Of a DNA stretch of 64,000 bases, positions 2,128 through 59,600 are shown in pieces. Made by a program: the position numbers and the translations under genes. Location of the stretch: the NCBI GenBank assembly GCA_964035545.1, contig OZ037770.1, forward strand, positions 8,066,973 through 8,130,972, in the 5' to 3' direction. The notes under the pieces are model-generated. The model did not search any database. It saw nothing but the letters and a program-made list of their open reading frames with translations, and had not been told where the DNA came from. The DNA is from Bugula neritina (taxonomy: Eukaryota; Animalia; Bryozoa). Every line of letters begins with the position of its first letter. The first letter of the stretch is position 1.

Positions 2128-2433
2128 TGTTATGATTTTCAGAATTAGGGTCGATGTGCAACCAAGAGAGTCTATTTATTGCTAGAGAAACTTCACCGTG
2201 ATAAGTCGAGTAGATATCGTTATATTTAGGTACAGGAATACATAATAAAATCTAATATAAACAGTCAACAATACACACGTCTAGTTAATTTACTGCACTA
2301 TCCTCAACTGGCTAGTAGCGCGAAGCTAACTACTGCTACTCAATATCAACTTAGCTAATTGGCTGGGTATATAGTTCCGGGTCAATATGCGACCTTGCGT
2401 ATTGTGCTGCTGGTAGCTCCATGAGCCACCAAA
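2128..2433 (-). repeat. E1 3' LTR
   Basis: Near-identical direct repeat of 9284-9589; preceded on the minus strand by a G-rich PPT (GGGGGCGG). Confidence 0.95.
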
Positions 2434-2714
2434 CCGCCCCCGCCAGCAGAAAGCCCTCTTTCTGATATACAAAATATAATTTACAAGTAACCAGGTACAT
2501 CAGTGGACTAACGAGAAAAAAAGATATAAAATGTATTTACAGGAACCAATCTAATTAGATATATATATGTATATAAAAAAATATGTGCACAATAAATTGA
2601 CATTAGGTCATGAGTAAGTCTTATCTACAGGCAGAGTACATGCCACCGTAACGGTAGGGAATGCCACAGAGAGGTAGTAGAGGAGTAAGATGGAAGTTGG
2701 AGAGAGAACTCAGG

Positions 2715-3790
2715 TTACTCCTGGGCGGCTCGTTTCATGCGTTTGATAGACTCCTGTAGCGACCAGAGCTCACTGGATGCGGCATGAATGCGGGGGGCCA
2801 GTCTGTATACCTCTTGCTCCAGGTCGTTTGCCCTAGTCTCTACTTCTCGTAAGTTGCGGGCCAGAGGAGATGAGCGAGAGAAAGTCTGCTGCTGCCAGTG
2901 CCTTTTCCGTTCTGAGGATGAAAGTGGGGGAGGGAGTGTGTACGTCTTTGTGTCTACCCTCTGTAGTACGACACGGGGGAGCGTATGCGGTTGACGTATG
3001 GGACTGAGAGGTGGGGGATTAGATGATTTTGTAGGCTTATCCATGGGTTCAGAAATGATGGGTCGAGGAGAGGGAAAGCCTTGCTCCAGGCGAGATAGCC
3101 GAGCTGGGTCGGTGATGAGAGGTCTGATAGCTTCAAGGAATGCGGGGTATGACGATTTATCTACGTTGTATACGTGTCCCTGAAAGCAATGCATGGTGCG
3201 TTGATGACACAGTAGGTAGTCACGATTATAACTATATTCCCCGCAGGGGCAGAACGTTGTGATATAATGCTGTGGCAAGTGGACTCTCAGTCTACGATGG
3301 GTTGTAAATCGCTGTTGACATAGCTGGCACTCGCGGTTACTGCCATCTCCTCTATGTTTCTTAATTTCTGTCTCTGTGGCAGGGGTAGTCCAGTTAGAGG
3401 TTGCTTCTAGCTGGGGTGGCAGTTGTCTGGTTGTGGAAGTTGGTGGGGCCGGCTTCGGGTCCCACGCCATCTCTAGGGAAGGCATGCCCGGAGAGACGGG
3501 CGCGAGTGTGTTTACAAGAGTAGAATTATTGTTAGATTGGGCGGATCTTTACAACATAATTCTAGTGACTGTCGACTGTTACTAGTCTGAGAGTCACAAC
3601 TTTTAGAATGCACTCGAGAAACCAGTGAATCATGTGTGGACTGACTAAGAACAGCGTCTAGCTCCAGGTCTAACAGACCGTCGGCCATTACAGTGTCCTC
3701 GTCGTCATTCACGTGAAACGTGGTTCCCAGTAATTCTGATTCAATCTGATGAATTAGTTCAGAATTTACTGGCATCGAGCCCGTTTCCAT
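2715..3790 (-). CDS. E1 extra gene (ORF3): acidic segment + double zinc finger + basic/Pro region + coiled coil
   Basis: ORFs 3512-3790 (acidic) and 2715-3485 (CQLC-x12-H-x3-H; CPC-x12-H-x4-HC; C-terminal heptads). Homologous to the same-position ORFs in E2, E4 and E5. Confidence 0.8.
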
Positions 3791-3807
3791 GAATAGGAAT
3801 ACAAGAC

Positions 3808-6800
3808 TTATACTGGCTTACCTGGGAACTCGGTATTAATGTCCATACTCAACGTTCTTGGTAAGATTGGAGCTGGTTGTGAGATACGTCTGCCTTTGGC
3901 GATGTCAGCGTAAGAAAAGGCTGAGCATCGTTTCTGGGGCACGAGGTCGGAACTATTTGCTTTACGCGCATTAATTCCTCCCACTATTCCGCCCTCGCAA
4001 AAGTTGATATTTGCGTGGGGTTCACAACTCCAACATTTCACCGTACGGTTTTCCCCTAGACTTTCATGCATGCCGCTTTTAATGCAGTCACATACGAAGT
4101 CTTTTAAATATGGTGGGGGTTTCCTCGTACGCTGTCCCCGTTTTAGGGGGGATCGACACGCTCGCCGGTTTATTAGTAGGGGCCTCTAATGGCGTCTCTA
4201 CTTCACCGTTAGCGGTTACCTCTTCTTGTTCTCCGGATGGAGCCCCTCCCTCCGTGGGGGTTTGCACTTCCGGAACCGGCTCGGTTTCTGGAAGTGATGG
4301 AATTAGACTTGGCGGCGGCGGACACGCTTCTGTTGGCAAAAGCTGTCGTTCTTCTCTCACCAAGTTTTCCTCCCGCGGTATGACCACTTCATATTCAGGT
4401 CCATGCCGCCGTCGCCCGCGTGTTGTTGTCTGCCTCCTGGGCTCCAACAACGGGGGGGGGGCTTCTCCCACTGTGTCGGGGCTAGCCCAGTGCGGCTTCA
4501 AGCGAGACTCATTCTGGATAGACACCTGCCCTGAGCGCTCAATCTTGTACGTATGGTTGGGCATAGCCTCGACGATCACGTAGGGTCCCACGAACTTAGG
4601 CTGTAACTTAGCCGCCTGTCCGCGACGCCTACGGTAATTGATCATCCAAACCTTATCTCCCGTTTGATAGAGGGGTGGTTCCTCGGAATCTTCGTGTCGC
4701 ACCTTCCACTGCTGTTTGCGCAGCATTTCATGCGCGACCTTCATCCGTTCCACTAGTTCACTGGCATACTCGTGAACCGAGTTGTCTTGCTCTGGAACGT
4801 GGTAGGTAAGATGGTCAGGGACGCGGGTCTCTCTCCCGAGCATCAAGAGGTTTGGGGTCTCACCAGTACTGGTGTGTGGGGTGCTACGGTAGACACGCAT
4901 GACTTGCGGCAACACCATGTCCCATTCCTCTTGGCTGCGTCCGAGGAGGAGACTCCGGAGCGCATCACCTAGCATCCGGTTGTTGCGCTCCACCACCCCA
5001 TTACCTTGTGGGTGATAGGGGGTGGTCCTGCTTTGATTTACTCCCCAGAGGCGGCAAAGGTTGCTCATCAGTTGGGACTGGAATTGAGCGCCTTGATCAG
5101 AGTGTATCTGTTCGGGGAGACCGAAATAGCAGAATACATGTTGGTCTAGTACCCTGGCCACTGTTGGGGCTGACGCATCTGGGATAGCCAGAGCATCTGC
5201 CCACCTAGTAAAGTGGTCGGTCAGTACTAAGATCCAACTATTGCCTCTGGGGGTCAGGGGCATGGGTCCGACCAGGTCTACAGCGACTATTTGCCAGGGC
5301 CTTCCAGCATATAGCCTCCGCCGTCCCGCTTCACCAGGGAGACGGCCATGCTTAGTGGCCTGGCAGATCTCACACTGTTTGACTCTGAGTCGGACGTCCC
5401 GCTCCATTTGTGGCCAATACTACAGGAGTCGTAATTTGGAGATCACTCTCTTGACCCTGCGTGGGCCTGTTTGTGAGTGTCCCAAATCAACTCACAGCGG
5501 GTGGCAGTGGGACAGACTACCCTCTTCCTCTCTGGGTGTCTGCCGCTGGCAGCTAGAGAGATGGTCAGTAAACCATCCTGCCCGATCCGCAGCGAGTCCC
5601 AACGCTGACAGTATAGCCGGAACTCGGCGCATCCCTGTCGTATGCGTTCCTCGCTGGGTCGTCGCCCTTCCTTTTTGGCCCGGTATATGTCTGCCACGAC
5701 TCCAGGCAGCTCTTCTTGGAGCTTCTTCAGCTCTCGGACATTATCGGCCAGCACAGGGTTGGTGCGGAGGTTTTGTACAACCTCTGGGGACTCGTCAACC
5801 TCCTGTCTGAGTTGACCCTGGTCCCAGTCAAACGGTGCTCCGTGGTGAGCCAGCGTTTCCAACTCGCATCGCGGGGGACCTCCATCCCTCCTCTCGATGT
5901 TGAGACACTGTTTGCAACCTCCATCAGGTCGGCGGCTCAAACCATCCGCATTGCTGTGTCTCTTGCCCGGTCGATGTTCGATCCGGTATGAGAATTCAGC
6001 TAGGATTTCGAGCCACCGGGCGACCTGACTGGAGGGCTCTGCTCTCTTGCGCAACCAGATCAGCGAGGCATGATCTGTACACAGCCGGAACTTCCTGCCG
6101 TATAAGTATGGTCTGAAGTGCTTCACTGACTTGATTACTGCCAGCAGCTCCTTGTGGGTAGTGCAGTAATTTCGTTCAGCGGGCGAGAGAGACTTACTGT
6201 AGTAGGCTACTACTACCTCTCGGCCTTCCTGCACTTGAGACAGCACAGCGCCAACATTTTGGTCACTGGCGTCAGTGTCGAGGATGTACTCCACAGTGGG
6301 GTCTGGGTAGGCCAAGATGGGCGCCGTTAGTAGGCTGCCCTTGAGGCGATCGAACGCTTCTTGTTCGACTGGGGTCCACTGCCACGTCACTCCCTTTGCG
6401 GTGAGCCGGTTTAACGGCTGTGCTATGCCCGCAAAGTCTGGTATGTATTGCCTGTAATACCCTACCAGCCCCAAGAAAGCCCGGAGTCCGGTCAAGTCTT
6501 GGGGGGTGACCCAGTCTTCTATCGCCTGTACCTTTTCGGGATCCAATGCTACGCCGTTTCGACCGACAACGTGCCTCAGGTACTTGACCTCCGGCTGCAA
6601 TAGAGAGCACTTGAAAGGTTTGAGCTTAAGACCGGCACCTCGGAGTCTCTCGAGGACCTCCCACAGACGACTGACATGCGTCTCGAAGTCTGGGAAGATC
6701 ACGATGACATCATCGAGGTAGACCAGCAGTGTCTTCCAATGGAGCCCGCTAAGGACTTGCTCCATCAGCCTCTGGAAGGTGGCTGGGGCGGAGGTTAGCC

Positions 6801-8435
6801 CGAAAGGCAACACCTTCCACTTCCACAAACCGTCCCGGGTGATAAACGCCGCTTTCTCCTGGGCATCGGGACTCAGAGGGACTTGCCAGTAGCTACTCAG
6901 CAAGTCTAACGTACTGAAGTACTTGCTGCCGGCTAGGGCATCCAATGACTCGTCAATACGAGGGAGAGGGTAGGTGTCCTGTATGGTTACGCTATTGAGT
7001 TTGCGGTAATCCACACAGAACCTCCAACTGCCGTCTTTCTTCCGGACCAGTACGACCGGCGAGCTCCACGCACTATGGGCGGGCTCTATGAGGCCGCGGT
7101 CCAGAAGATCCCGCACCTGTCGGCTAACCTCCTTCTCTTTTTCTGGCCCCAGCCTACGTGTGGGTTGCCGGACAGAGGCTGTCCCTGCAGTCAGCGGTAT
7201 TTTGTGTCTGACAACTCCAGTCAGTCCCACGTCATGATCTCCGCTGCTGAACACATCACCGTAGTCGCGTAGCAACTTCGCCATAGCTTGGCGTTCCTTG
7301 TTGCTCGCGCAGCCGCCACAGGCTGTTTCGTATAACTCCCAGAGATGTGTTGGGACCGTCCCTCGCCCCTGAGTAGGGTGTCGAGGGGGTGCCTCCGTCG
7401 CGTCACCCAGCGACGGGCCCACGTCCTCCTCCTGGACGGAGTGGAACCGGCCCAGCATTGACCCAGCTGGAAGCTCAAGGGGCTCGGTAAAGGGGTTGAC
7501 ACACTGCACCGAGACCTCCCCTCGCTCAGTTAGTCGGTTTAAACTACTAGCAAGTTGGATCCTTTCGTGCGCGCCTTCAACGACCCCGAGTCTGGCTATC
7601 CGGTTGCTGTTCACTCGGCAGTGGATAGTAGCTCTGGAGCGTCCGGGCACGGTGCAGTTTCGAACTACCTGAACACCACCCACCAGAGAACGCCCAAACT
7701 TATCCACACAGGCGAGTTCTCGCCCGCCCATCAGCACTACCGACTTGCTAAAGTCTATTCGGCACTGGTGCTGCTTCAAGAAGGGCATTCCAAGGATAGC
7801 ATCTTCCTCCAGTTGGCTTATGACAAAGGTCTTCTGTACAGCCTGGTCTCGGACACGTCCAGGGAGCTCGATAATCCCGTAGAAGGGGATACACGACCTG
7901 TCTGCCAGGGTGCCATGTTCCCCTGTATACGGTCGTACTCTATCCCTGTCCCGGCGGGGCAGTGCCTCAAAGATCCTGCGACTGAGAAGGTTAGTAGTAC
8001 AACCGGAGTCTAGCAGGAAGGTGACGGTGTTACCCGCCACCTTTCCGGGTAGGAAATAGCTCTCTCCGTGTGGTTGTACTTTCACCCCCCCGCATGTGCT
8101 GTCCTGGATGAGTAGGACGGCGGGGGTTTCACCCGTGGTTTATGGGGTTTCCGGCGGCGAGGTTGGTGCCGGCGGGGTTCGGAGCTCTCCACTGGGCCTT
8201 CCGGCTCTATTTCAGTGGCGGGCTCCTCTTCCCGAGGTAACCGGTGGAACCGGTTAGCGAGTGGCAGGGAGAAGGTACTCTGCTGCTGTGTGGGTCGGCA
8301 AGTCCTGCGTGGTACCTGCCACTCGGGGGGAGTGTACCGTCGTGTCCGTACGAACAGACGGCGGCGTGTCCCATCATGCTCCTTCAGTTGCGGCCCGCAG
8401 GGAGGGAGGGCGTCCGCGGGCCGTGACAGTTTAAC
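3808..8435 (-). pseudogene. pol: E1 pol (protease-RT-RNase H-integrase), interrupted
   Basis: LLDSGC protease motif, RT YLDD, RNase H DTDAS, integrase core (VDLVGP..HSDQG..VER) and GPY motif in ORFs 5443-8085 and 4088-5407; frameshift/stop near 5420-5460 and near 4140. Confidence 0.93.
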
Positions 8436-9250
8436 GCCCCTTGGTGTTGGGGTCGTCTTTGCTGTCCATGGTCTTGACCAGCACTACTCCAGCCCGGCCC
8501 CACAAGTGTTGGGGGTCACCGCAGGACCTGACCGGGGCCAGCGCCGGCCAGAATCGTTACCAGCTGTCCCAGCATCTCTACAATACGGTCCACTTCGGCT
8601 TCCAGAGGGGGAGCTTTGGGGCCCGTCGTAGCTCTGGCAGCACTGACTCCAACTGCTGGTGGGTTCCGTTGTGCTCGATGCATTTGGGTAGCCAACAGGT
8701 AAGCTTCTCCAGCCTTCAGGGCATCCTCTATTCTGGTTATCCCTTTAGCTCGTAGTTGATGGTGTAGGCCCAGGTCGTTTAGTGACTGGACAAAGGCGTC
8801 GTAGGTGTAACGCTCTTGGTGTTGTGCTGGTAGATCACCATACGCAATTTGTGCCAGCTTCTTCACCGTCGCGGCATGTTCTTGTAGCGAGGTCCGCGGG
8901 GCGCGGCACAATCTCTGTAGCTTGGTCCTGGCGCCTATTGCAGAGATGCCAAAACGGGCCCGCAACGCAGCCAATATCCGGTCTACGTTCATTCCTACTC
9001 CGTACGGCTTGGCTTGTTCTGTCAACGCTCTCCGCAATTGGATAAGGGCCACTCTGTGCGGCCATTGGGCAATATCCATTACTTTTCTAAACTCTTGTAT
9101 AAATTGTTTGACATCTTCTGACCCAGTAAAGGTGGGGGTTTTCAAGCAGTATCTATAAGCTTCTTCTCCCACATGATTTACAGGGTTAATATCGTTTCTA
9201 CGCTCACCTTCTACTGGGGGTGGTTGCGTTCTAGCATTTTCAGTCTCCAC
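8384..9250 (-). pseudogene. gag: E1 gag
   Basis: ORF 8516-9250 (PTFTGSEDVKQFIQEF...) continues in frame past a TGA to 8384; start codon is GTG; CCHC knuckle degenerate. Confidence 0.88.
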
Positions 9251-9264
9251 CTTTGATTTACACT

Positions 9265-9282
9265 ATCCCACCGCTGCCACCA
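9265..9282 (-). promoter_or_regulatory. Primer-binding site, tRNA-Leu
   Basis: Plus strand ATCCCACCGCTGCCACCA equals the 3' 18 nt (with CCA) of metazoan tRNA-Leu(AAG/TAG), 1 nt from the LTR. Same PBS at 20863-20879 and 43859-43876; ACTG variant at about 46453-46470 and 63819-63836. Confidence 0.88.
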
Positions 9283-9283
9283 C

Positions 9284-9589
9284 TGTTATGATTTTCAGAA
9301 TTAGGGTCGATGTGCAACCAAGAGAGTCTATTTATTGCTAGAGAAACTTCACCGTGATAAGTCGAGTAGATATCGTTATATTTAGGTACAGGAATACATA
9401 ATAAAATCTAATATAAACAGTCAACAATACACACGTCTAGTTAATTTACTGCACTATCCTCAACTGGCTAGTAGCGCGAAGCTAACTACTGCTACTCAAT
9501 ATCAACTTAGCTAATTGGCTGGGTATATAGTTCCGGGTCAATATGCGACCTTGCGTATTGTGCTGCTGGTAGCTCCACGAGCCACCACA
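9284..9589 (-). repeat. E1 5' LTR
   Basis: TG...CA termini, adjacent PBS, flanking TSD ATAG. Confidence 0.95.
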
Positions 9590-10379
9590 ATAGTATAGTA
9601 TAAGTATATAGCTATCAGGCTGAATCTAGTACAGCAGACAGCAGTAAAGTAGTAGTACTATTAATAATAGTAATAGTAATACTATTAAGAACAATGAATA
9701 TGATTATCATATTCATTGTATGTTTGCACTTGTTTTCGCAATAATCATAACGATACTGAGTTTTATGACAGTACACAAGTAACACATACTGTTACTGTTA
9801 GGAAGAAAACTTATGAGGAAAAACAACTCTTTCAAAGAGTTTACAGTAAAAAAATTGGCACTGCTGGCACCTAATTAACCTTCTTTATTTTAATTTCTGT
9901 AGTCAAACCTCAAATTTTTACCACAATTTCATAGTTTCGTTGGACTTAGCACACATTAAAACGCTTCTCACTAATAAAACGATGTACCTTTAATGGTTTT
10001 TAGGTTTTTGAGTTATTGCTATTTTTTTTTTGTTTCAGATTCAACCTATTTGTGCCTATATACTCCTTAAAAATTGACAAAACGTTCTGGATTTTCCGAT
10101 ACTATTGTCATATACTAAGCAGTTACTGACCTTAAGTAACTAAGCAGTTACATTTATTGTCATGTACTAATCAATTATTGTTATACAGCCAATTATATAT
10201 TTCATTTAACCTTTATTTTATTTAGGTGCCTAACAGATATAATTATATTACGTAGTGTATACTATATTATTCTGGGCTTTAGTATTTAGCAAATTATTTA
10301 TTAAATAGTGGTGTGTGTAAAGTAGTAAAAAGCATTGTCTTAACTTCGTTTGGTTAACTCTCCTTCAATTCAGATGTTA

Positions 10380-10780
10380 ACAACATTGATTGCAGCTTCT
10401 GCATCTTCAGGTGGCCTAGTTAACATATTTTCAGTTTGTATGACATGAATAGGTTTTGAGCGACACTCTCATGCCCAGTGTCCTCTTTTGTTACAGTTGT
10501 AACAGGTAAATTCATAACTGTCTTTCTTTTGACCATCTGCTCCTGGAGCAGAGGTCCGGTTGCTTTGTGTGTTCCTGTATATATTAAAATTTTGTCCTGC
10601 CCAGTTGTGGTATCCTGTTTGCAGAGGGGCGAGGGTCGTTCTCTATTAGAAAGAGTTTAACTTTCCACCAACTCATTTGATGTAAATGTCCAATGAGGTC
10701 TTACCCAGTAGCGGACTTCATTTTGTAAGCTTTCAAAATGTGTTATAAATTGTCATTTTAAACAATAATACCGGAGGTTA
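10380..10780 (-). pseudogene. Relic retroelement gag fragment with CCHC zinc knuckle
   Basis: Minus strand around 10455-10510 translates FTCYNCNKRGHWA*ECRSK (C-x2-C-x4-H-x4-C with an internal stop). Boundaries approximate. Confidence 0.6.
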
Positions 10781-11084
10781 GATAGTATTGAGTTGGTATC
10801 TTTGCAAATAGCATAAAATTCACATTCTCACTTCATCTGCTCTAAACTTCAGTGTTTGAGTTTTGCACTGCGTGTAATGCTATCACTATTGCTACCTTCT
10901 TTTGAAGATATCAAGCATTCAGCCATACCAAAGAGAAGCGATATGAAACTAGCAACACTCAGTTAAAGTTTGTTAACTGGTCCTGAATATTATTATTATT
11001 TAAATTCATCTTCAAGCTTCTCTCAACTTCTACAATAAAGCTGCTGTTACCATCTTCATAACTTATTGCCACGAAGCAACTGTG

Positions 11085-14000
11085 ATGACGTTTGTTGCCA
11101 AAGCCAAATGGGGGCTCCTTTTTGTTGTATGGTAAGACTAACTACCTAATCACTAAATTATGTCGGTATTGCTCTTGATATACATAAGTTAATGTTTAAG
11201 TCCTAAAGCTAAAAAGACCTATTACTTTAAAACAGAATTTTCCTGTTTGCTCATAAACAGCTCCAGAACTTTGATTAACATACAGTGTTTTTATTAGCCT
11301 AGTGTTTTAGAGATAAATTGCATAGTGCATTGGGTCAGGATAAAAAACTTCCCATATTAAAACATCTGCTCATCCATCAATATGTAGGGCTGTAGGCGGT
11401 TGTAAAATTGTATTCAATTGGTCATCTACCAAAATTGAATGCTGTGAATTATTTTAATGCAAAAAGTCACATTCATAATACTTTCCAATTATTTTTAATC
11501 CGATATTATTGTTCGTTATTGTGGCATGTGCATGTTGCAGAGTAATTACATAGTTTAGTTCTGATCAAACATTAAAAGTTCAAATAGTAAGCAATAAGAT
11601 AGTGAATAGAATAAGGATATTACTTTCCTTTCCTCAGCACAATGATGTATGGCTGTTATGGACCTCTGCTATTACTTAGTCAAGTGGATGGTAAGCTTCA
11701 ATACGATCCCTCACAAGTAGTCTGGCTTACAGAGTTAGTTAAGGTAGGTGTTTCTGTTTTCTTGTTTCTTCTCAAGAAATAGCAACTTATTGGCAAGTAA
11801 GGATTACTGTAATATCCATACAATGTGATCAGTTGTGTGTAGAGAGTATAATAGTCTAGAGAGTCTTGTAGTTAATGTCATTTACACAGTGTCGTGTTTC
11901 CTGCTTCCTCCTTACAAGTAAAAGACTAAATCTCAACGACTAGTTAGACTGTAACTTGCTGTTTTATTCTATTCAAGTTGTGACAGTAGGTTGTAGTTGT
12001 GTTCATCTTATAACTTCAGCACATGTAGAGCTTACATTTTGACTGAAAATTCGTGTTTATGATTTGCCTTTGAGATGTAATGGTTAGAGTACTGGCATAC
12101 TAAGCGCACGGTCGAGTTTGTACACCGGTTGTAAAATTAAAACAAAAACAAGCAGTCATAATTTCTCCTATGCCACGTATATAAGTAAGTCCTTAGCCCA
12201 CTTTAAAAAAGCCCTTTTCATCAGGGTTTTTCACAGGAATAGTGACTATAAATCTTGGTCAGTTTTTTTTAAGGGGCAAGCACTGACTTTAGCAGTGAAA
12301 AAGTTAAAACCTACCTTCTTCCAGGTAAAACCACAACTTAAGTCATGAGCAAGTGCCACACTGTAGTTAAAGTAGCAATTAATATAATATGTTGAAGATT
12401 AATTGCATTTGACACTAGCACTGCTATACTTATCCTATTTTATCAACCAATAGTGTCTATGATCATTGGGACACATGTGAATTATAAAACCTAGTTTGAT
12501 ATCCTTTATAGCTGATAGTGTCTATCACCTTCCTGAGTAACCAGTCTATACTCAAACGGTTCTCATTCAGGGAAGCTCTACCTTACTTTGTACCTGCCTT
12601 GTGCTACTTTGTTAACGCCAACATTTGTCCCCGTCTCATGGATCACCTTGACCCTGCCACCTTCTCGGTGAGTTGTCAGCCCTTCGTTACAACCCCTAAC
12701 CTTCACAATGCTGGTGAATCTACTAGGTGCAGCTTAGGTATGCACCAGGGCCTAGGCGAAGCATGAACACACCAGGTGAAACATAGATATACTAGGTGAA
12801 ACATAGATATACTAGGTTAACCATAGATATACTTATAGGTTAAACATAAATATACCAGGTGAAACATAGATATATTATGTTAAACATAGATATACTAGGT
12901 TAAACATAGATATACTAGGTTAAACATAGATATACTAGGTTAAAAATAGATATACTAGGTTAAACATAGATATACTAGGTTAAACATAGACATACTAGGT
13001 TAAACATAGATATACTAGGTTAAACATAGATATACCAGGTGAAACATAGATATATTAGGTTAAACATAGATATACTATGTTAAACATAGATATACTAGGT
13101 TAAACATAGATATATTAAGTTAAACATAGATATACTAGGTTAAACATAGATATACCAGGTGAAACATAGATATATTAGGTTAAACATAGATATACTAGGT
13201 TAAACATAGATATACTAGGTTAAACATAGATATATTAGGTTAAACATAGATATACTAGGTTAACCATAGATTTACTAGGTTAAACATTAAACACTGGGTG
13301 AAAAGCAGCTCTACTAGATGAAGCATTATTACAATCATTGAATTTTAAATTACATACAGCCTGTGTATTCCAACATCTTCTCCTATTAACATTATGTAAT
13401 TTTTTATTATCACAGGCACTATCTAACATCAAAGTTGTCATTACCACCTTACTTTACATAATCATCATGAAAAGGTAACTCCAAAGTATTTTGTGTTGCA
13501 AATAAAATCTGCTCTAAATGCTGCTAAACAATCCCTGACACACTTCACTTGTGCAGTTGTAAAATATTCCTATATATGTTAGTCTTCATCTACAGACTGT
13601 TTTAGGGTTGTATGCCTAAACAATTTTGTTTTATAATAAATTTCGTGTACATATTATGGGCTGAGGTGACTTGTGCTTTCTGATTGGCTTTACTAGTACT
13701 AAAAACTTATACTAATTAGAGCTAACTTCCATTGCATGCTATTTTTAGCTGCTGCAATGTACAGCCTAATTACTGAACTGGCTTGAAAGTTTAAACTTCG
13801 AACTTGAAAGCCATCAGAAATCCCAAATCAATTCAGCAAATATGCACACAAAGTTAAATCTTACAACAGTATGTAGATGTCAGCTAATATATGTAAGAAT
13901 ATTTCAATACTGCGCAAGTGAAGTTTGTCGGGGATTCTTTAAAGATGTATTCACTATATTGTATTGGATTTCTGGTAATGTTTTCAGTGACTTGAAAAGC

Positions 14001-15763
14001 TGGGCTGGAAAATGTTTTGTTTTTTGTCATTTGTATTTTAGATATCCAAGTAGCTTGCAGATAACAGCTTTAGCTATACTTACAGCTGCCAGCGCTATAC
14101 ACAGGTAAGCTGCTATTGGCTGATAGTTTAATAGATTTGTTACTATTGGCTAGTTTATAATTTCACACCTCAAAGTAAAAGGTTTTGCTAACAATGGAAA
14201 CCCCACAGCTGCTAGATATAGATGCTTGTAGAGAATGGCAATAACTAGTCCATAACTTGTGCATCACATGTATGTAGTTTTAGAACCCTTTTGTGGCTTA
14301 TGTGTATAGAGACAAAAATGGCGGTATTTAATGGATCAAAGAGTTAAATTTAGTATTCTAATATTTCACGCATCACGGTTTTGGGATCTACAGCTTTGTG
14401 AGATATGGAGGGAGCACTGTATAGCTTAGTGAGATATGGAGGGAGCACTGTATAGCTTAGTGAGATATAGAGGGAGTACTGTATAGCTTAGTGAGATATG
14501 GAGGGAGCACTGTATAGCTTAGTGAGATATGGAGGGAGCACTGTATAGCATAGTGAGATATGGAGGGTGCACTGTATAGCTTAGTGAGATATGGAGGGAG
14601 CACTGTGGAGCTTAGTGAGATACGGAGGGAGCACCGTATAGCTTAGTGAGATATGGAGGGAGCACCGTATAGCTTAGTGAGATATGGAGGGAGCACTGTA
14701 TAGCTCAGTGAAATATGGAGGGAGCACTGTATAACTTAGTGAGATATGGAGGGAGCACTGTGTAGCTTAGTGAGATATGGAGGGAGCATCATATAGCTTA
14801 GTGAGATATGGAGGGAGCACTGTATAGCTTAGTGAGATATGGAGGGAGCACTGTGGAGCTTAGTGAGATACGGAGGGAGCACCGTATAGCATAGTGAGAT
14901 ATGGAGGGAGCACTGTATAGCTTAGTGAGTTATGGAGGGAGCACTGTGGAGCTTAGTGAGATACGGAGGGAGCACCGTATAGCTTAGTGAGATACGGAGG
15001 GAGCACCGTATAGCTTAGTGAGATATGGAGGGAGCACCGTATAGCTTAGTGAGATACAGAGGGAGCACTGTGTAGCTTAGTGAGATATGGAGGGAGCATT
15101 GTATAGCTTAGTGAGATATGGAGGGAGCACTGTATAGCTCAGTGAGATATGGAGGGAGCACTGTATAGCTTAGTGAGATATGGAGGGAGCACTGTATAGC
15201 TTAGTGAGATATAGAGGGAGCACTGTATAGCTTAGTGAGATATAGAGGGAGCACTGTATAGCATAGTGAGATATGGAGGGAGCACTGTATAGCTTAGTGA
15301 GATACAGAGGGAGCACTGTGTAGCTTAGTGAGATATGGAGGGAGAACTGTATAGCTTAGTGAGATATGGAGGGAGCACTGTATAGCTTAGTGGGATATGG
15401 AGAGAGCACTGTATAGCTTAGTGAGATATGGAGGGAGCACTGTAATACATGTTAGTTTTCGGATTTTAAAATATGATACTTACATTACGTATTCGCTATT
15501 CCATATTCCACTGTTACCTACACAATTTTTTCACTGTTATCAACTCCACTGTTGCAGTTATGGACTATCAGTGACAGGAGGGAAGGCTGATGTGTCCTAT
15601 CATAAAGGGGAACCAATGGAGATGAGGGCCTCAGTCTATGGGGTTGTCTTACTGTTGTGTGGTGTGTCCTTGACCAGCTTTGCCAGTGTTTATACCGAGT
15701 ACATCATGAAACGAGGCTACGCAGTGGGTAGATATACTGTTACTAGTACTAGTACTACTACTG

Positions 15764-15825
<62 letters not shown>

Positions 15826-16458
15826 ACTACTACTACTATACTACTACTACTGCTACTACTGCTACTACTACTACTGTTACTACTGCTACTACTGCTACTA
15901 GTACTAGTACTGCTACTGCTACTAGTACTAGTACTGCTACTAGTACTACTACTGCTACTAATACTGCTACTTTTAGTTGTCTCATTCATGTTACATCTAT
16001 TTCAGGTATCTCTACACAAACAGAGCATGTACCTCTACTCTTCAGGTGTTTCATTTAACACCCTCGCAGTTCTGTGGAAGATGCAAGATGGCCGTCAATC
16101 TATAAACTCAACCAACAGTTTCTCTATTTTCCAGGGTTTCAACATCTACTCTTGGACTATAGTATTTACCACTGTGAGTTTATTCTCTCTGATAGTCTTT
16201 AAAGCAGTATCTGCCAGTTCATGTACTTATAAATGTGACACACAATGTAATGCTGTGTTTCAGGCCCTGCAAGGATTCTGTGTATCAGTTATAATGAAAC
16301 ACAGCAGCAATATAACCAAACTAGTGCTGACTTGTGTCTCCATCATGGTCAGTACTCTGATGTCGATGGCTCTGTTTGACCTTCAGATAACCGTGTACTT
16401 TGTCATCTCTCTGTCCTTCATTTTGATTGGATTGCCTCTCTATATGCTAGGATCTTAG
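11085..16458 (+). CDS. SLC35A4: Nucleotide-sugar transporter, SLC35A family (SLC35A4-like), about 319 aa, 8 coding exons
   Basis: Exons 11085-11131, 11638-11743, 12512-12667, 13416-13474, 14042-14104, 15558-15723, 16006-16173, 16264-16458; all GT-AG, phases consistent, total 960 nt. Product KWGLLFVVCTMMYGCYGPLLLLSQVDGK..WLTELVKL..DPATFSALSNIK..ASVYTEYIMK..SVIMKHSSNITK resembles human SLC35A4 as recalled. Confidence 0.88.
12770..13290. repeat. Minisatellite, 20-bp unit (ACTAGGTTAAACATAGATAT), about 26 copies
   Basis: Direct tandem array in SLC35A4-like intron 3. Confidence 0.95.
14390..15444. repeat. Minisatellite, 31-bp unit (TATAGCTTAGTGAGATATGGAGGGAGCACTG), about 34 copies
   Basis: Direct tandem array in SLC35A4-like intron 5, no spacers. 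Confidence 0.95.
15737..15970. repeat. Compound (ACT)n/(GCT)n microsatellite
   Basis: Trinucleotide array filling intron 6. Confidence 0.93.
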
Positions 16459-17424
16459 GATGTTGGCAAAGTGCTTGTCAGGTACTTTTCAAGTGCTTGT
16501 CACATGTTCAACAGTTACTCTCTGTGGTATCTGTTGCTATATGATGTAATACAGCCGGCTTGGTGTGAGGCTATGAATAGATTGTCGGGAGTCTAATCAC
16601 ACGCCTAGGAAAATTTACTCTACCAACTTACATGCTCTTACATGCACTTACAGCTCCTAAGACTTGAGAAATGTTTTTGAAAGTTTTTTTTTGTATAAAT
16701 ATTATAACAAATGTAACGAGTTCTTTTTATACATTTTCTGTCTTCCATTCTGTTTATATTAGACACTCAGCACTAATTTGCTTCTTTAGTGCTGTACAAC
16801 TTTTATACACAATTACTTTGTAAACTTGTTTTATGTTTTGGTGCTAACAAACCAGCTTTTTAGCTGTCAGTTTCCATGTGTAATTAAAAATAAGTTTTAT
16901 TTGTTGTCCTGTATATTGTGCGTTTATTTATAGAATAATTGTTGAATTTGAATAAACAATGAAATGCTGTACTGTAAAATATGATTTAGCTAAGACTATG
17001 TAAGTCCCACAACCGATAGTGTCATATTGGTTGCTTCTACGGGCTGTTATATAAAAAATTTCGTACAATGCATATTTTTGCTGGCAATCAAATTATATCT
17101 ACTGCTGGTACTCAACTTTGTATGTTGGAGTTATCTCTAATAGCTACTCTGAAACAAGCTGCCATTACAATATTCGCTATAGCATCAGCACTACTGTTAG
17201 TAAGACAAACAGATGCTCCAACATGTGTACCAACATGCTTAACAGAGTCAACAGATGTGATTGGTTGAATATACGGAGTTGCATACAGTTTTATTCGCCC
17301 TTTTTAATACTTGCAGGACTACAGCATTACTATTGCTGTTGTATTTGGGAGTTACCTTGTCACAGTTATGACCCTGCTTTACGTTGCTTTGTTTGAATGC
17401 TACTCATTAATAAAAATTTTCCCC

Positions 17425-18021
17425 TAGGTACACTTTGCCGTATCATAGGCCATAACGTAAAATGTCAGCCTATTTTACAAATTTCCGAGCTTCCAGTACG
17501 GCATTGCAGTATGTCAGATCAAGCACTGCTTGATTCAAACAACTTGCGGCAGGCTCCTATTGAACAGGAAGACATTCACGTCAATTCATTAGATATAACT
17601 GTCCAATGAGGTGCTATAGATCGTACCCAATAGCAGACTTTGAGAACTTTAGCTCGGACATATTAATATCTGACATTTTACGTTAAGGCGCACGATAAGA
17701 CAAATACCCGTCATTCGCACTTTGCTGCACCGTATGCCGTACCATAAAATACCAGCCAGTTTTACAAATGTCTGAGATTCCTGTACGGTGCTACGGTACG
17801 CTAAGATCAAGCATTGCTTGATTCAAATAAGTTGCTGTGGGCTCCTATTCGACAGAAAAACTTCTGAGTTAACTAATTGGATATAACTGTCCAATGAAGT
17901 GTCATAAATTGTACCTAATAGCAGACTTTGAACACTTCAATCCGGGCACATTAAAATGGCTGGTATTTTATGTTACGGCGTACGATATGGCAAAAATGTG
18001 AATGACGGGTTAGTGTGCCTA
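17425..18021. mobile_element. Two related MITEs, one (17706-18010) nested in the right TIR of the other
   Basis: Outer TIR TAGGTACACTTTGCC.. / ..GACAAA[insert]GTGTGCCTA; inner TIR ACCCGTCATTC..ATAAAATACCAGCCA / TGGCTGGTATTTTAT..GAATGACGGGT; internal sequences similar to each other. Confidence 0.7.
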
Positions 18022-18814
18022 GGTGGTAAGCTAAAAATACCTATGATATGTGTGTATGGTGTGGATCATTTTACAAGAGTAATTTGCCATTTGCTTCATT
18101 TTCTAATATATATTTGGTCAGAAATAACACGTTCTATAAAAGCAAGTACAATTACACCTTTGCTGTAATAGGATAGATCACTGAAGCCACATAAACACTT
18201 AATACTATTTGTTACGAACTGTAAAACTCTAAGCACACTACACTTAATAAACCTTGCCTCAATGATGTTCTTCAGAATTAGAAGTTGAATTTTAATAGCA
18301 CATCGTTTACTAGATACTATGTGTTAAAATCTATTAGACAATTGAGACCAGTTTTGATTGTACTGTGCTTTGACTTTAGAAATAACATATAAAATATTTC
18401 GGACTCACAAAAGCTAGCAATAATCAAAGTAATTAAATATCTATTAACAGATAATATGCGAAATAGAAAGGTACTTAATACTGGAACTTTTCCCATGAGC
18501 TGTTGAAAGTGGCCTAACAGTATAAAAAAATTGAAAGAAAAGTATAAAACACTCAGTAGAAGTAGACTATAGATGGCTGTAAAAAATGTTATGTTGATTA
18601 ATTTTTACGTCTTGAACCTTTTCTCTGTTCATTTCTTCTTAAAATTTATTTGCCCTACAAGAAAGGTGACTAAGTTATGGAATACAGTGAGACACGAGAG
18701 AAAAATGGCGCTAAATGACTACCTAGAACACGTCACATAAACAGATCAGCCTTTTATCTTAAACCAGCAACGATTTAAAATATTGACACGCGTTAAGTTA
18801 GTACTGAAGGACAC

Positions 18815-56384
<37,570 letters not shown>

Positions 56385-56640
56385 CTGTAAATAGAAAAAC
56401 TAACTGCTCCAGCATACAGTTTGTAGAGAAAATTGTACATTACTTTTTTTCAAAACTAAAATATTATATTTTATTAAAGGATTTTCTTTTTATATTTTTT
56501 TTAGTATATTTCTAACCAATTGAGTAACTTCTTTAGTTTGCCAAATCATTAGTCATTTTTATAATTTTTTCTCATCAAATCTGAAATCATTTTATTCGAA
56601 AGTGACGTCACTCTTAAATAAATCAAAGTTGATTTCCTTT

Positions 56641-59600
56641 TGTTGTGATTTTCAAAATTAGGGTCGATATGCAATCCAGAGAGTCTAATTACTTGCTAGA
56701 GAACTTCACCAGGATAAGTCGAGTGAACGAGTATATATTTTAAACACAAGAACACATTACAAAAACGATACAAATACATTTAATAATTCACACATCTAGA
56801 CTATCCAACACTCTAACTTCGACTGACTAACAGCGCGAAAACTATTACTGCTACTAACTATCAAAGCCGCTAATTGGCTGTCATTGTTCCGGGTCAATTA
56901 CGCGACCCTGCGTATCGTGCTGCTGGTAGCTCCACGAGCCACCACACCGCCCCTACCAGCAGAAAGCCCTCTTTCTGATATAAAAAAAAATATTTCGTCA
57001 TTACCCACGTACATCAGTAGACCAAAAGAAAAGACATAATATATATAAAGATATACAATAACAGACAGAGTCATTATAACAGCAGGTTACATACAATTGG
57101 CCAGCTATAGAGAAGGAATACCGACTAGTTGTAGTATTGGACAAGGAATCGAGCTGTCGAGCAGTCAAGCATTTACACGATAGTCTTGGGTCTCTCAAGA
57201 GGACGAGGCTTGTGGATCATTCCGGGCAACAGAACCAGAGTCAGTGTTTGGCACGCCGATGTTTGGCCTGGCATGTACGTAACTTCCTTTTAATCCGGCC
57301 AACCGAGCCTTTTAGCTGAAAGAGTCCAGTCGTGGTATTAAGCAGGTCCGGTGCTAACTGAGTAAACTCAGCCTGCAGTCGGAGGAGGCGTTCCTCCACT
57401 GTGGCCAGGCGAGCAGGGTCTGGGGACGGTGTCCGTCTGCGACGAAGAGGGGGACTTGGAGACCGGGTTCACCTTTTCGTCGGGGTAGAAGAGACCTCTC
57501 CTTCTTCGGGATAGGAAAACTCTTCGGGGGTGTACACAATCTGAGGGCGGTCGGATACCAATGGAGATTGCTGCCTGGCGCAGTCTAGTACGCGTTGGTA
57601 GCCCGAGGTCAGGACGGCCAACAACATCGCCTTCTTTACTAGGGGTCGTATCAGAGTTAAGAATTCTGGATAGAGTTTGGCATCCACCACGGAATTCTCT
57701 CCAGAGAAACAGCCCGTCGCCTGATGTCTGGTAACGGGGTAGGGGTAGACGTCGTTATATCCACAGGGGCAGAATGTGAGTAATAGGTGGGCATTGACAT
57801 GCAGCTTCAAGGAGCGGTGAGAGGCGCACTCCTCGTCACAAATCTGGCACCGCGTCCTTCCTTTGGGTCCCCAGGCTGTTTCTATCTGTTCCTCTGTTTC
57901 TGGCGACACCCACTGCCAACGGCGGCACAGCGGCTCGGGCCGGTCACCATTGGTATACTCCTCATGCTGCGGAGCGGGAAGTGCTCTATCCCGTACCCTG
58001 GTTGTAACGGGTCGAGTGTAACCTGAAAGAGTTTCAACAGTGTTAGAATAATACACTGCAGTGTTGTCAGCTTTGAACAGCCTGGCAACTTCTCGTTCAG
58101 TTACCTCGTAGATATGTATGGTAGTGAATAGTCAGATAGAACACGTATTGCAATGAGATTATGCAATCTCTAAGTCAACTGAGTTCTTACCACGGTAGTT
58201 CACTAGCCTATCTCCAGCTCATTCGACTCAGTGAGTCGGAGCTGAGTGATGCAATCTAGTTTCTATATCAAGATATAGTTAACTCACCCCACGATCTGTT
58301 GTCGTAAGACATACTGAATTTGTGAAATGGTTTGGACTACTGATTAGGAACACGTCTACTCTTGACTGCATCAGCGTATGAAAAGATCGAGCAACGTGGT
58401 TGAGGTGCGTGATTAAGACTTTGTGCACCCGGCAGATGAATTTTGTTTCTACTTCCGCCGATACAAAAGTTGATATTTCCGTGGTGTTGACAACTCCCAC
58501 ATTTCCTCGATATTTTTGCCGTACGGTTTTCCCCCAGACTTTCATACGCGCCGCTTTTAATGCAGTCACATACGAAGTCCTTCAAGTATGCGGGGGGTTG
58601 CCTCGTACGTTGTCCCCTCTCTAGGGGAGGTGATGCACTCGTCGGTGTGTTAGTAGGGGCCTCTGGTGGCGTCTCTACTTCACCGTTAGTGGTCACTTTT
58701 TCTTGTTTTCCGGATGGAGCCCCTCCCTTCGTGGGGGTTTGCACTTCCGGAACCGGCTGGGTTTCTGGAAGTGATGGAATCAGATTTGGCGGTGGCGGAC
58801 GCGCTTCTGTTGGCAAAAGCTGTCGCTCATCTCTCGCCAAGTCTTCCTCCCGCGGTATGACCACTTCATATTCAGGTCCCTGTCGCCGTCGCCCACGCGT
58901 TGTTGTCTGTCTTCTACGCTCCAACAACGGGGGGGGGGGGGGCTTCTCCCACTGCGTCAGGGCTAGCCCAATACGGCTTCAAGCTAGACTCATTCTGAAT
59001 AGACACCTGTCCTGAGCGCTCGATCTTGTATGTATGATTAGGCATAGCCTCGACGATCACGTAAGGGTTCCGCGAACTTAGGCTGTAGCTTAGCCGCCTG
59101 TCCGCGACGCCTACGATAATTGATCATCTACACCTTTTCTCCCGTTTGGTAGAGGGGTGGTTCCTCGGAATCTTCGTGTCGCACCTTCCACTGCTGTTCG
59201 CGTAGTATATCGTGTGCGGCCTTCATCCGTTCCACTAGTTCACTGGCATACTCGTGAATCGAGTTGTCTAGCTCTGGAACGTGGTAGGTGAGATGGTCAG
59301 GAACCCGGGTCTCTCTCCCGAGCATCAAGAGGTTTGGGGTCTCACCAGTACTGGTGTGTGGGGTGCTACGGTATGCACGCATGACTTGCGGCAATACCGT
59401 GTCCCATTCCTCTTGGCTGCGTCCGAGGAGAAGACTCCGGAGCGCATCACCTAGCATTCGGTTGTTGCGCTCAACCACTCCGTTACCTTGAGGATGGTAG
59501 GGAGTGGTCCTGCTCTGATTTACTTTCTAGAGGCGGCAAAGGTTGCTCATCAGTTGAGACTGGAACTGAGCGCCTTGATCAGAGTGTATCTGTTCGGGGA

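Follow-up and report, generated by a model that had tools for sequence, protein, structure and literature searches.

A predicted spliced zinc-finger gene between pol and the 3' LTR of Gypsy elements in Bugula neritina: a candidate regulator of element RNA

Introduction

In the literature surveyed, one accessory regulator of a Gypsy element has a tested function: the CERV protein of Cer1, a Ty3/Gypsy element of C. elegans. As described in PMC10309623, CERV is a 517-aa protein encoded by 5 exons and made from spliced RNA whose first exons lie in the gag frame; it is composed of H, M and G domains with a C4 loop, and contains a Cys finger and an NLS. Export of gRNA requires the protein, which is predicted to multimerise and depends on phosphorylation at S214, presumably by a proline-directed kinase; the same account gives no obvious homologue outside nematodes (PMC10309623). 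Complex retroviruses carry doubly spliced regulatory genes 3' of pol, whose products act in export (Rev, Rex and Rem) or transcription (Tat and Tax), and foamy virus Tas is made from an internal promoter (PMC12789967). Other extra genes of LTR elements include (i) the non-env ORF3s of bdelloid rotifers, encoding a GDSL esterase, a DEDDy exonuclease, TM or coiled-coil proteins (PMC5408684), and (ii) the extra ORFs of the plant and fungal Gypsy elements Grande (gene23), RIRE2, Retand and Boty, of which the Grande product is nuclear and for which an accessory-like role has been proposed (PMC7264820).

Here we describe ORF3, a third gene of Gypsy elements found in a 64,000-nt stretch of Bugula neritina DNA (the window). 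Like CERV, it encodes an accessory protein of a Gypsy element that is predicted to be nuclear, to be spliced from a gag-frame exon and to multimerise, and that has a zinc-binding motif. Unlike CERV, as presented in PMC10309623, it combines two C2H2-type fingers in tandem with a coiled coil at the C-terminus and occupies the env slot; furthermore, the function of CERV has been tested, whereas that of ORF3 is predicted. Identity with CERV was rejected, since the predicted fold of ORF3 differs from the H, M and G domains as described in that paper. With complex retroviruses, as reviewed in PMC12789967, the elements share a regulatory gene 3' of pol reached by predicted splicing, but they lack env and have a different protein fold and an invertebrate-type Gypsy backbone. 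The bdelloid ORF3s are similarly family-specific, located after pol, gained and lost as modules and typically expressed from spliced messages, but they are enzymes or membrane proteins, and the word "zinc" is absent from the main text of PMC5408684. The plant and fungal ORFs are also conserved and lie between pol and the 3' LTR; those described in PMC7264820 are antisense with their own promoter, whereas ORF3 is sense and predicted to be spliced. ORF3 represents a large family of well-folding candidate regulators, unrelated to CERV and with exact predicted splice junctions, and bears on how LTR retrotransposons that contain splice sites export unspliced RNA and on whether "complex" regulation arose outside retroviruses.

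Results and Discussion

Gypsy elements of the window and location of ORF3

Gypsy copies constitute approximately 59% of the window. Their assignment to Ty3/Gypsy is based on the presence of LTRs, a PBS, a PPT, target duplications and the pol order PR-RT-RH-IN. The PBS sequence is TGGTGGCAGCRGTGGGA, which we take to be of the tRNA-Leu type. Element E1 (2128..9589, minus strand) contains LTRs (99.7% identity of the pair, 304 nt), PBS, gag, pol (PR-RT-RH-IN) and ORF3 of subtype A, flanked by a 4-bp target duplication, and has a mosaic structure, with an E5-like pol and an E2-like ORF3. Element E2 (20573..30818, plus strand) has an LTR of unrelated type, a 4-bp target duplication, ORF3 of subtype A and an AT-rich insertion of ~2.5 kb near 22000-24550. 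Element E4 (45975..52867, plus strand; 4-bp target duplication) is a chimera in which an LTR, gag and pol of E5 type sit within the 5' LTR of a second element; it carries ORF3 of subtype B, and ~0.8 kb of its integrase is missing. Element E5 (56641..64000, minus strand), also with subtype B, has a 5' LTR extending past the window end. The more distant E3 (38240..43953, minus strand; ~69% to the other elements) is cut by a 16-bp satellite after the integrase core and has neither ORF3 nor the gag donor described below; this truncation makes its lack of ORF3 uninformative.

As originally predicted, ORF3 of E1, E2, E4 and E5 lies in the sense orientation to gag-pol, downstream of the integrase tail and upstream of the PPT/3' LTR. 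A six-frame scan of the window with a profile of the core domain gave exactly four matches (E 1e-47 to 7e-34, E1 being in the training set). The main exons are: (i) 2715..3511 (minus strand) in E1, of 265 codons and open to its stop, encoding the core (3416-3042), a Ser/Pro/basic linker and the coiled coil; (ii) 29312..30120 (plus strand) in E2, of 269 codons with the core at 29392-29751 and one internal stop at 29362; (iii) 51467..52215 (plus strand) in E4, of 249 codons with the core at 51550-51918 and internal stops at 51616 and 52063; and (iv) 57241..58022 (minus strand) in E5, of 260 codons with the core at 57939-57583 and an internal stop at 57471. The motifs named in the original prediction were all found, namely W, C-x2-C...H-x3-H (with Tyr in E4), C-P-C...H...C, VD and the C-terminal heptad helix. 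Its reading frames proved to be interrupted in all four copies, each of which has a stop or a frameshift, the latter in E1 near 3540 and absent from most related contigs of one sequence run. Moreover, the starts proposed in E4 (51467) and E5 (58022) have no ATG and correspond to the first base after a candidate splice acceptor. The ORF3 proteins are 260-365 aa long.

Selection and the env question

Purifying selection, suggested earlier as a check, is evident, with dN/dS far below 1. The ratio is 0.16 (95% CI 0.11-0.24) for the E4/E5 pair and 0.22 (0.11-0.35) for E1/E2, whose dS is near saturation, compared with 0.11-0.36 for pol and 0.73-1.78 for five control frames. ORF3 is therefore a real, selected gene, beyond chance.

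It is not env, in agreement with the earlier description: Pfam gave no env family, and the overall model consists of a zinc-finger domain and one helix. TM-like hydrophobic windows occur in only 7 of the 168 full-core relatives. In formal terms, the RKRR motif of E2 matches the furin pattern. We rejected the idea that the subtype B upstream frame encodes a signal peptide, as this frame has stops in E4 and shows no clear purifying selection.

A passenger gene, i.e., a captured host zinc-finger gene or a remnant of env, would fit the related genes annotated in two bryozoan genomes, the direction of transfer being unrooted. The lack of an env match and the rarity of TM-like windows argue against it, as do dN/dS values as low as those of pol, dedicated (predicted) splice signals tied to gag, and an unrooted ORF3 tree in which element-linked members fall on both sides of the midpoint (the branch to subtype B is long, 2.0 changes per column). 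Recent host capture, in particular, was not observed, the nearest named genes being distant and bryozoan. This explanation is already largely refuted by selection, and we consider it very improbable.

Predicted splice architecture

The splice signals, like the RNA-export role discussed below, were not part of the original prediction. ORF3 looks spliced and is likely expressed from spliced RNA, judging by signals in the DNA. Each of the four copies has a strong donor near the start of gag and, at the pol end, an ATG, 8 codons and a second donor; the zinc fingers are immediately preceded by an acceptor with its branch point, canonical in three of the four. Both donors and the acceptor are of phase 1 in both subtypes.

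The first donor is located at 9202..9210 (minus strand) in the first gag codons of E1 (AAG|GTGAGC, rank 2 of 395 GT sites), at 20929..20937 (plus strand) in E2 (phase 1 to ATG 20901, rank 2 of 525), at 46525..46533 (plus strand) in E4 (phase 1 to ATG 46485, rank 1 of 362) and at 63756..63764 (minus strand) in E5 (phase 1 to ATG 63804, rank 1 of 414). The predicted short exon, composed of the ATG, 8 codons and 1 nt, occupies 3822..3846 (minus strand) in E1 (donor rank 1 of 395), 28970..28994 (plus strand) in E2 (ATG overlapping the pol stop, donor rank 1 of 525), 51170..51194 (plus strand) in E4 (weak donor, rank 34 of 362) and 58288..58312 (minus strand) in E5 (donor rank 3 of 414). Taken together, the two donors hold ranks 1 and 2 in E1 and E2, 1 and 3 in E5, and 1 and 34 in E4, among 362-525 GT sites per element. 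The junctions expected from these sites are 20931>29312 and 28994>29312 in E2, and 63762>58022 and 58288>58022 in E5. The short exon recalls HTLV tax/rex, which have a short ATG-bearing exon at the pol end.

The predicted intron of E1 (3512..3821, minus strand; 310 nt) holds an alternative acidic leader frame from ATG 3790, broken by the frameshift, and this copy has a non-canonical sequence at the homologous acceptor site (3512). That of E2 (28995..29311, plus strand; 317 nt) has an open acidic leader from ATG 29026, a branch point and an acceptor, whereas the introns of E4 (272 nt) and E5 (265 nt) are closed in all three frames. Little of the intron sequence is conserved, with 16-30% of columns per 50 invariant across most of its length. 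In shuffled sequences, a donor of equal score appeared within the first 150 nt in 3-5% and a strong ATG-donor pair in 2-5%, values that are not independent, since the four copies share ancestry, and that concern sites found before being tested. The combination of branch point, pyrimidine tract and YAG was present at 30 of 5238 AG sites, and residues over the acceptor site fit a YAG acceptor in 58 of 59 subtype A proteins (a redundant set). Upstream of the W motif, dN/dS in subtype B is 0.71 (CI 0.33-1.72) with low dS, as expected if this segment is conserved as nucleotides. Against the splice model stand the non-canonical acceptor of E1 and the weak second donor of E4; sequence joined at the predicted junctions was absent among the matches listed in the four contig runs (15 of 150 in one listing, 3 in another). 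A further acceptor-like site lies in the pol-tail "FSYADAVK" segment (28917 in E2, 51115 in E4 and 58366 in E5), and may instead reflect protein conservation.

The frame relations at the pol end bear on an improbable alternative, in which ORF3, separate or fused to Pol, is an integrase partner steering insertion in the manner of a chromovirus chromodomain. The E1 short exon shares the pol frame, and the same predicted splice would join Pol to ORF3; relative P0232 (1460 aa) contains RNase H, integrase and core in a single frame, P0160 has an integrase tail motif before the core, and the density of Gypsy copies in the window would suit targeted insertion. However, in E2, E4 and E5 the pol stop precedes the second donor and ORF3 has its own ATG, the tail motif lies upstream of the core in only 2 of the 168 full-core proteins, and a missing stop codon would alone be enough for such a fusion. 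Pol-ORF3 readthrough as a general route was rejected, because the frames differ; the pol stop precedes the main ORF3 exon in every ORF3-bearing copy of the window. A chromovirus-type targeting domain was likewise rejected, given that fusion to the integrase C-terminus is seen in none of the four copies and in 2 of the 168 relatives.

Protein family and predicted fold

The ORF3 family comprises 319 cluster representatives. In line with the original description, it matches no catalogued family: in Pfam it has no family at the curated cut-off, the best matches being below it or spanning one finger only, and neither the whole protein nor the core gave a Foldseek match at E<=0.001. VIA-align returned coiled-coil rows only for the whole model and a best Z of 3.6 for the core. 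The ESM Atlas yielded unnamed clusters at 0.95-0.96, also C2H2 families, with DUF5810 and CASZ1-type leads at 0.93; both leads were rejected, as none of 88 family members matches either in Pfam. A homologue search with a diverse alignment retrieved subtype-A-like proteins only, none of them named. Loci encoding relatives were absent from the viral contigs, metagenome contigs and prokaryote genomes scanned, and integrase scans gave nothing beyond a chance match of 20 residues to a bacterial MAG.

Named relatives come from bryozoans only and are uncharacterised proteins sharing the core domain: XP_067940964.1 and XP_067944745.1 of Watersipora subatra and KAF6040922.1 and KAF6040923.1 of B. neritina. 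Unlike ORF3, these carry host-gene annotations, and some contain either two copies of the core or an additional segment at the N-terminus; the Watersipora protein with two cores has an E value of 2e-77 and the other one of 4e-16.

The core is modelled with high confidence (pLDDT 94) as a pair of C2H2-type fingers with additional helices packed onto them. Finger 1 has the canonical spacing C-x2-C-x3-F-x5-L-x2-H-x3-H and, with the rough geometry of the pair, resembles the tandem C2H2 fingers of Kaiso, ZBTB and CTCF (Z 3.0-3.6 over 50-57 residues). The best superposition, on Kaiso (Z 3.6, rmsd 2.7 A, 57 residues), is below the level that the tool treats as meaningful. In contrast to classical C2H2 proteins, ORF3 has a 5-residue linker, a C-x-C finger 2, a conserved Trp, a VD strand and three extra helices. 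A Kruppel-type array was rejected, since the TGEKP-type linker has 7 residues and that of ORF3 has 5 in 132 of 140 relatives, and a hydrophobic residue, mostly V/I/L, is conserved at position +6 of finger 1. Arg/Lys residues are strongly conserved at three positions of the finger 1 helix (70-85%), and core net charge is positive in 141/168 relatives. The C-terminal heptad pattern exceeds shuffles in 83/89 proteins, from which multimer formation is predicted, a basic cluster is present in 59/89, and a basic plus Ser/Thr-Pro motif in 44/154 (21 expected). The N-terminus is net negative in 37/41 distant relatives and 47/49 subtype A proteins, and an acidic linker occurs in 7/10 subtype B proteins.

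Exchange of ORF3 subtypes

The two subtypes, A (E1 and E2) and B (E4 and E5), are 30-33% identical to each other. E1 and E5 are 90-95% identical in pol and differ in the subtype of the ORF3 cassette, and the E1 LTR is E5-like (77%) and unrelated to that of E2, whose ORF3 subtype E1 shares. The elements have thus exchanged ORF3 subtypes irrespective of their pol and LTR.

This exchange argues against an LTR-specific transactivator and weakens the broader view, in our opinion doubtful, that ORF3 is a Tas/Tax-like transcriptional activator. Such a dimer would place two finger pairs on DNA, either in the LTR or in an internal promoter preceding the short ATG exon, with its acidic patch recruiting co-activators. 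Compatible with it are the canonical finger 1 spacing, superposition on DNA-bound pairs such as that of Kaiso, acidic patches in most relatives, an inverted repeat opening both LTR types, and the short exon itself, whose place at the pol end is one that an internal promoter could serve, as with foamy virus tas in PMC12789967. On the other hand, LTR type and ORF3 subtype do not co-vary, the linker and position +6 of finger 1 are atypical, and finger 2 begins its helix with R-D-Y in subtype A and P-Y-P in B, its predicted recognition helix being wholly different between subtypes with a common LTR type. The Z score lies under the meaningful level of the tool, as noted above, and most solved tandem C2H2 pairs are DNA complexes in any case. 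Only in E1 does the LTR share more k-mers with the sequence preceding the short exon than shuffled sequences do. Of the original idea of a nuclear accessory protein, a selected, non-env and probably nuclear, nucleic-acid-binding product (by prediction) is retained; the LTR transactivator as first choice is abandoned, given the absence of co-variation and the differing finger 2 helix.

A candidate regulator of unspliced RNA

The reading that we favour, tentatively and with somewhat less than even confidence, is that ORF3 encodes a Rev/Rex/CERV-like regulator binding the unspliced RNA of its element in the nucleus, allowing its escape from splicing and its export, in the manner of complex retroviruses such as HIV and HTLV. 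In new transcripts, splicing would join either the gag donor or the short ATG exon to the acceptor that precedes the zinc fingers; the protein would enter the nucleus via its Arg/Lys cluster, multimerise through the coiled coil and bind, by the basic finger surface, a target within a conserved internal region, after which full-length gag-pol RNA would build up in the cytoplasm. In subtype A, a longer form with the acidic leader from a retained intron may also be produced.

Several observations point in this direction. The strong donor ranks imply that the genomic RNA carries strong splice signals that it must evade, and the phases of both donors and the acceptor match across the two subtypes, whose introns show little conservation. 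The cassette is exchanged while pol stays 90-95% identical (E1 and E5), a pattern more in keeping with a target within conserved internal RNA than within U3. The basic core, heptad C-terminus, basic cluster, and basic plus Ser/Thr-Pro motif are consistent with such a role, the basic cluster and heptad pattern corresponding at the sequence level to the Arg-rich motif and multimerisation region of Rev/Rex-type proteins, and CERV provides a precedent in a Gypsy element. Against RNA export stand a leucine-rich export signal not above chance (44/89 vs 35 in shuffles), common acidic patches, more typical of transcription activators, and weak fold matches that are nearly all to DNA-binding finger pairs; in addition, a factor needed only for its own splice sites leaves the first retention of the gene unexplained. 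No structured RNA element or hairpin occurs at a shared position across all four copies, and Rfam gave no match.

The free swapping of deeply divergent subtypes between backbones would also be expected in a host-parasite arms race, and packed non-canonical zinc fingers often bind proteins. Both would suit an anti-silencing factor directed at host chromatin or a piRNA-pathway protein rather than element nucleic acid. We regard this as having a small likelihood, because the conserved Arg/Lys residues on the finger 1 helix point to nucleic acid, the protein has no enzymatic domain, and the pairwise ratios show no positive selection.

With the RNA regulator as the favoured role, a wider proposal, made with marked reserve, is that an animal Gypsy lineage may have independently evolved the control of complex retroviruses, with an exchangeable cassette that is multiply spliced and specifies a new zinc-finger domain family switching the element from spliced to full-length RNA. 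Element families would have traded this cassette, at times as a fusion to integrase, and bryozoan hosts would have domesticated it on more than one occasion. The family defines an uncatalogued zinc-finger domain, which accounts for several uncharacterised genes of bryozoans and which the annotation of invertebrate genomes may have mistaken for host transcription factors.

Conservation and selection of ORF3

The sense-strand frame and motifs originally predicted between pol and the 3' LTR (ORF3) were recovered in all four elements concerned: E1 and E2, which carry subtype A, and E4 and E5, which carry subtype B. The claim of an ORF in each copy stood in part, as the frame is conserved but every copy is interrupted within the range assigned to it, E1 by a frameshift near 3540, E2 by a stop at 29362, E4 by stops at 51616 and 52063, and E5 by a stop at 57471. 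The E1 frameshift is copy-specific; it is absent from run X1 contigs holding 9178 of the 9625 summed depth at that place.

Codon comparison gave dN/dS ratios of 0.16 (CI 0.11-0.24) for E4/E5 and 0.22 (CI 0.11-0.35) for E1/E2, the latter at a dS of about 2, near saturation. Three pol comparisons gave 0.11-0.36 and five wrong frames 0.73-1.78. The ORF3 ratios lie within the pol range and far below the wrong frames, and ORF3 is therefore selected as strongly as pol, which agrees with the protein-level conservation first proposed. Judged from its sequence, ORF3 is a genuine accessory gene under selection, and the zinc-finger family to which it belongs is uncatalogued.

The ORF3 protein family

A search with the E1 frame returned 57 relatives (56 at 41-76% identity; full length 355-383 aa), and one with the E5 frame returned 10. 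The two subtypes are homologous across the zinc-finger core and the coiled coil (hhalign probability 99.7). When a profile of 40 sequences was compared with 1.84 billion proteins, 319 representatives were matched at E<=0.001 (133 at <=1e-10), the best 150 of which were inspected. Among distant members (88 sequences), the W, T, I, C-x2-C, H-x3-H, C-x-C-G, H and VD positions are kept at 78-99%. For 30 proteins looked up by cluster, an organism is named in four clusters, all bryozoan (two Watersipora subatra, two Bugula neritina); three further looked-up proteins are labelled 'hypothetical protein'.

Two distant relatives tie the core to Gypsy pol: P0232 combines RNase H, integrase and the ORF3 core within a single frame, and in P0160 the core is preceded by the integrase tail. 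An integrase-linked targeting factor, a role that would rest on such rare fusions to integrase, seems an improbable identity for ORF3. Two other relatives, P0196 and P0230, join a Gypsy-type protease to the core in one frame of 1145-1208 aa, without reverse transcriptase or integrase, and may represent a non-autonomous family that arose by deletion. P0141, P0226 and P0250, bryozoan proteins of two genera, have in common an extra N-terminal segment, Y-x-G...LYH...W, before the core; the locus numbers of the two Bugula genes are adjacent. An unrooted tree was built for 60 core domains, taken from 58 hand-picked proteins; 16 of its 56 inner branches are open. Bryozoan genes occur in three places in this tree and element-linked members on either side of the midpoint. 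Such an unrooted arrangement is compatible with repeated domestication of the core by bryozoans.

In the AlphaFold2 model, residues 121-240 form a core predicted with confidence (pLDDT 89-98), the flanks are disordered, and the C-terminus holds a single helix of 50 residues; modelled alone, the core reached pLDDT 93.8 and pTM 0.84. Searches matched the finger pair only, and with low scores, the best being Z 3.6 for Kaiso over 57 residues; Foldseek matches had E>=0.47, and the best E in sequence-profile comparison, 6e-7, was to individual fingers within multi-finger proteins. A C2H2 Pfam model is matched at E<=0.01 by no more than 8 of 88 members. The spacing of finger 1 is canonical and its +6 position hydrophobic, the inter-finger linker measures 5 residues in 132 of 140 sequences, and finger 2 is C-x-C in 134 of 140. 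The core is basic (141/168), the N-terminus acidic (84/90) and the C-terminal heptad pattern above shuffles (83/89), these sequence sets being redundant and subtype-A-rich. ORF3 was judged to be neither an env or CERV gene nor a member of the classical C2H2 arrays.

Non-env third ORFs are already known in rotifer elements (PMC5408684) and in plant and fungal elements (PMC7264820). For the terms searched, the available text of PMC13524379, PMC8556966 and PMC13326412 does not mention such a zinc-finger gene. Among the papers listed by full-text searches, none describes the family in its title or the opening of its abstract; these searches did not extend to Repbase, Dfam and GyDB or to supplements and subscription journals, and a curated entry may exist. 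What appears new is an uncatalogued zinc-finger family in the env slot with a predicted complex-retrovirus-style splice layout.

Predicted splicing of ORF3

A donor, AAG|GTGAGC, is located 69-75 nt past the PBS in E1, E2, E4 and E5, in phase 1 of the gag frame and 10-14 codons in (the E1 start codon is not ATG); E3, unlike these four ORF3-bearing elements, does not contain it. At the pol end of all four copies, an ATG is followed by exactly 8 codons plus 1 nt and then a second donor, which, scored with approximate textbook splice-site frequencies, ranks 1 (E1), 1 (E2), 34 (E4) and 3 (E5) among 362-525 GT sites. A branch-like sequence, pyrimidine tract and YAG are found 265-317 nt beyond the second donor in E2, E4 and E5, with the acceptor 107-110 nt upstream of the conserved Trp, in phase 1; in E1 the acceptor departs from the canonical form, and 3473 is a possible alternative. 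Single sites of such strength occur in 2-5% of shuffles; the argument lies in three phase-matched sites kept across both subtypes. They predict that ORF3 is made from spliced RNA, in a complex-retrovirus-style layout.

This layout would account for the missing ATG of subtype B and for its intron being closed in all frames, and would explain why the E1 frameshift lies outside an open 265-codon main exon. An acceptor beneath it would likewise explain the near-invariant SNNNS-x-x-[LVSI]-D in the disordered region of subtype A, where 58 of 59 subtype-A proteins fit such a site. In subtype A one frame of the intron stays open and forms an acidic leader (dN/dS 0.40, CI 0.22-0.71), whose ATG is the start in at least 17 of the 32 listed relatives; since this frame is kept open, the protein may occur in long and short forms.

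Modularity and possible function

E1 and E5, both on the minus strand, are 90-95% identical over RT-RH-IN (3987-7923 vs 58453-62393). From window position 3987 onwards identity drops to about 45%, and E1 there resembles E2 (64-70%). Between E1 and E5, protein identity is 67% for gag and about 30% for ORF3. The exchanged block comprises the short exon, intron, main exon and 3' UTR. The E1 LTR is 77% identical to that of E5 (58 shared 8-mers) and unrelated to that of E2 (4 shared 8-mers, same strand). ORF3 subtype therefore follows neither LTR, gag nor pol, and the pattern can be read as a recent swap in which either the pol block or the ORF3 cassette changed places.

Acidic patches and the prior for C2H2 proteins would suit a transactivator, a function made rather unlikely because ORF3 does not co-vary with the LTR and because the finger-2 helix differs in subtype B. 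Anti-silencing via a host protein, to which rapid turnover could point, is hardly probable. Our tentative reading, by analogy, is a Rev/Rex/CERV-like regulator. The strongest splice donors of the element lie in its genomic RNA, and spliced RNA would give rise to a product that combines a basic motif with Ser/Thr-Pro sites and with a helix predicted to multimerise; its target, to go by the swapping pattern, would lie in conserved internal RNA. We infer that ORF3 works like a retroviral regulator. CERV is an experimentally tested export factor (PMC10309623), and PMC12789967 describes both the doubly spliced regulators and the internal promoter of foamy virus.

The elements and their surroundings

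Ty3/Gypsy sequence (five elements) makes up approximately 59% of the 64-kb window, and the surrounding DNA is animal-type, with AT-rich introns, short host exons and minisatellites. As every named relative of ORF3 is bryozoan, the host is probably an invertebrate. The elements have one PBS type in common and the pol order PR-RT-RH-IN. Both ends and 4-bp target duplications are kept in E1, E2 and E4, E5 extends beyond the window edge, and E3 is truncated after the integrase core, with an unusually short 5' LTR (43877-43953, ~77 bp). The E1 and E2 insertions are young, as their LTR pairs are 99.7 and 98.6% identical, respectively; E2 holds an AT-rich insertion of ~2.5 kb between gag and protease (22000-24550). 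E4 (45975-52867) is chimeric: the 5' LTR of another element contains an element of E5 type (94% to E5), with the outer 4-bp duplication kept and ~0.8 kb of the integrase core gone at a join near 50120.

The integrase tail (3810-4185, 28700-28973, 50890-51144 and 58337-58620) extends ~100 residues beyond the RxPPxYLxDF motif; it contains a C-x2-C-x2-H-x5-C-like stretch, and its conserved FSYADAVK segment also resembles a splice acceptor. In both LTR types, a hairpin or inverted repeat (-12 to -17 kcal/mol) starts the LTR right after the PPT (2395-2435, 30530-30570, 52522-52560 and 56908-56948). Downstream of the ORF3 stop, the two elements of subtype A each have another stable hairpin, at 2650-2730 in E1 and 30130-30210 in E2 (z -3.1 and -4.2, 15 shuffles), which is absent in subtype B.

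A minus-strand fragment of a non-LTR-type reverse transcriptase (767-1927; RVT_1, E 3e-24) adjoins E1. Short host-gene exons on the minus strand (37152-37286, 44953-45051 and 34042-34104) encode what we take to be fibronectin type III-like repeats, and the elements sit among the introns of this gene. Segment 35360-36291 is duplicated at 43954-44951. Minisatellites occupy 12756-13375 (20 bp), 14265-15600 (31 bp), 15699-16023 (9 bp), 30874-31672 (26 bp), 37943-38274 (16 bp) and 39618-39773 (22 bp); the 26-bp array begins just past the E2 3' LTR and the 16-bp array interrupts E3.
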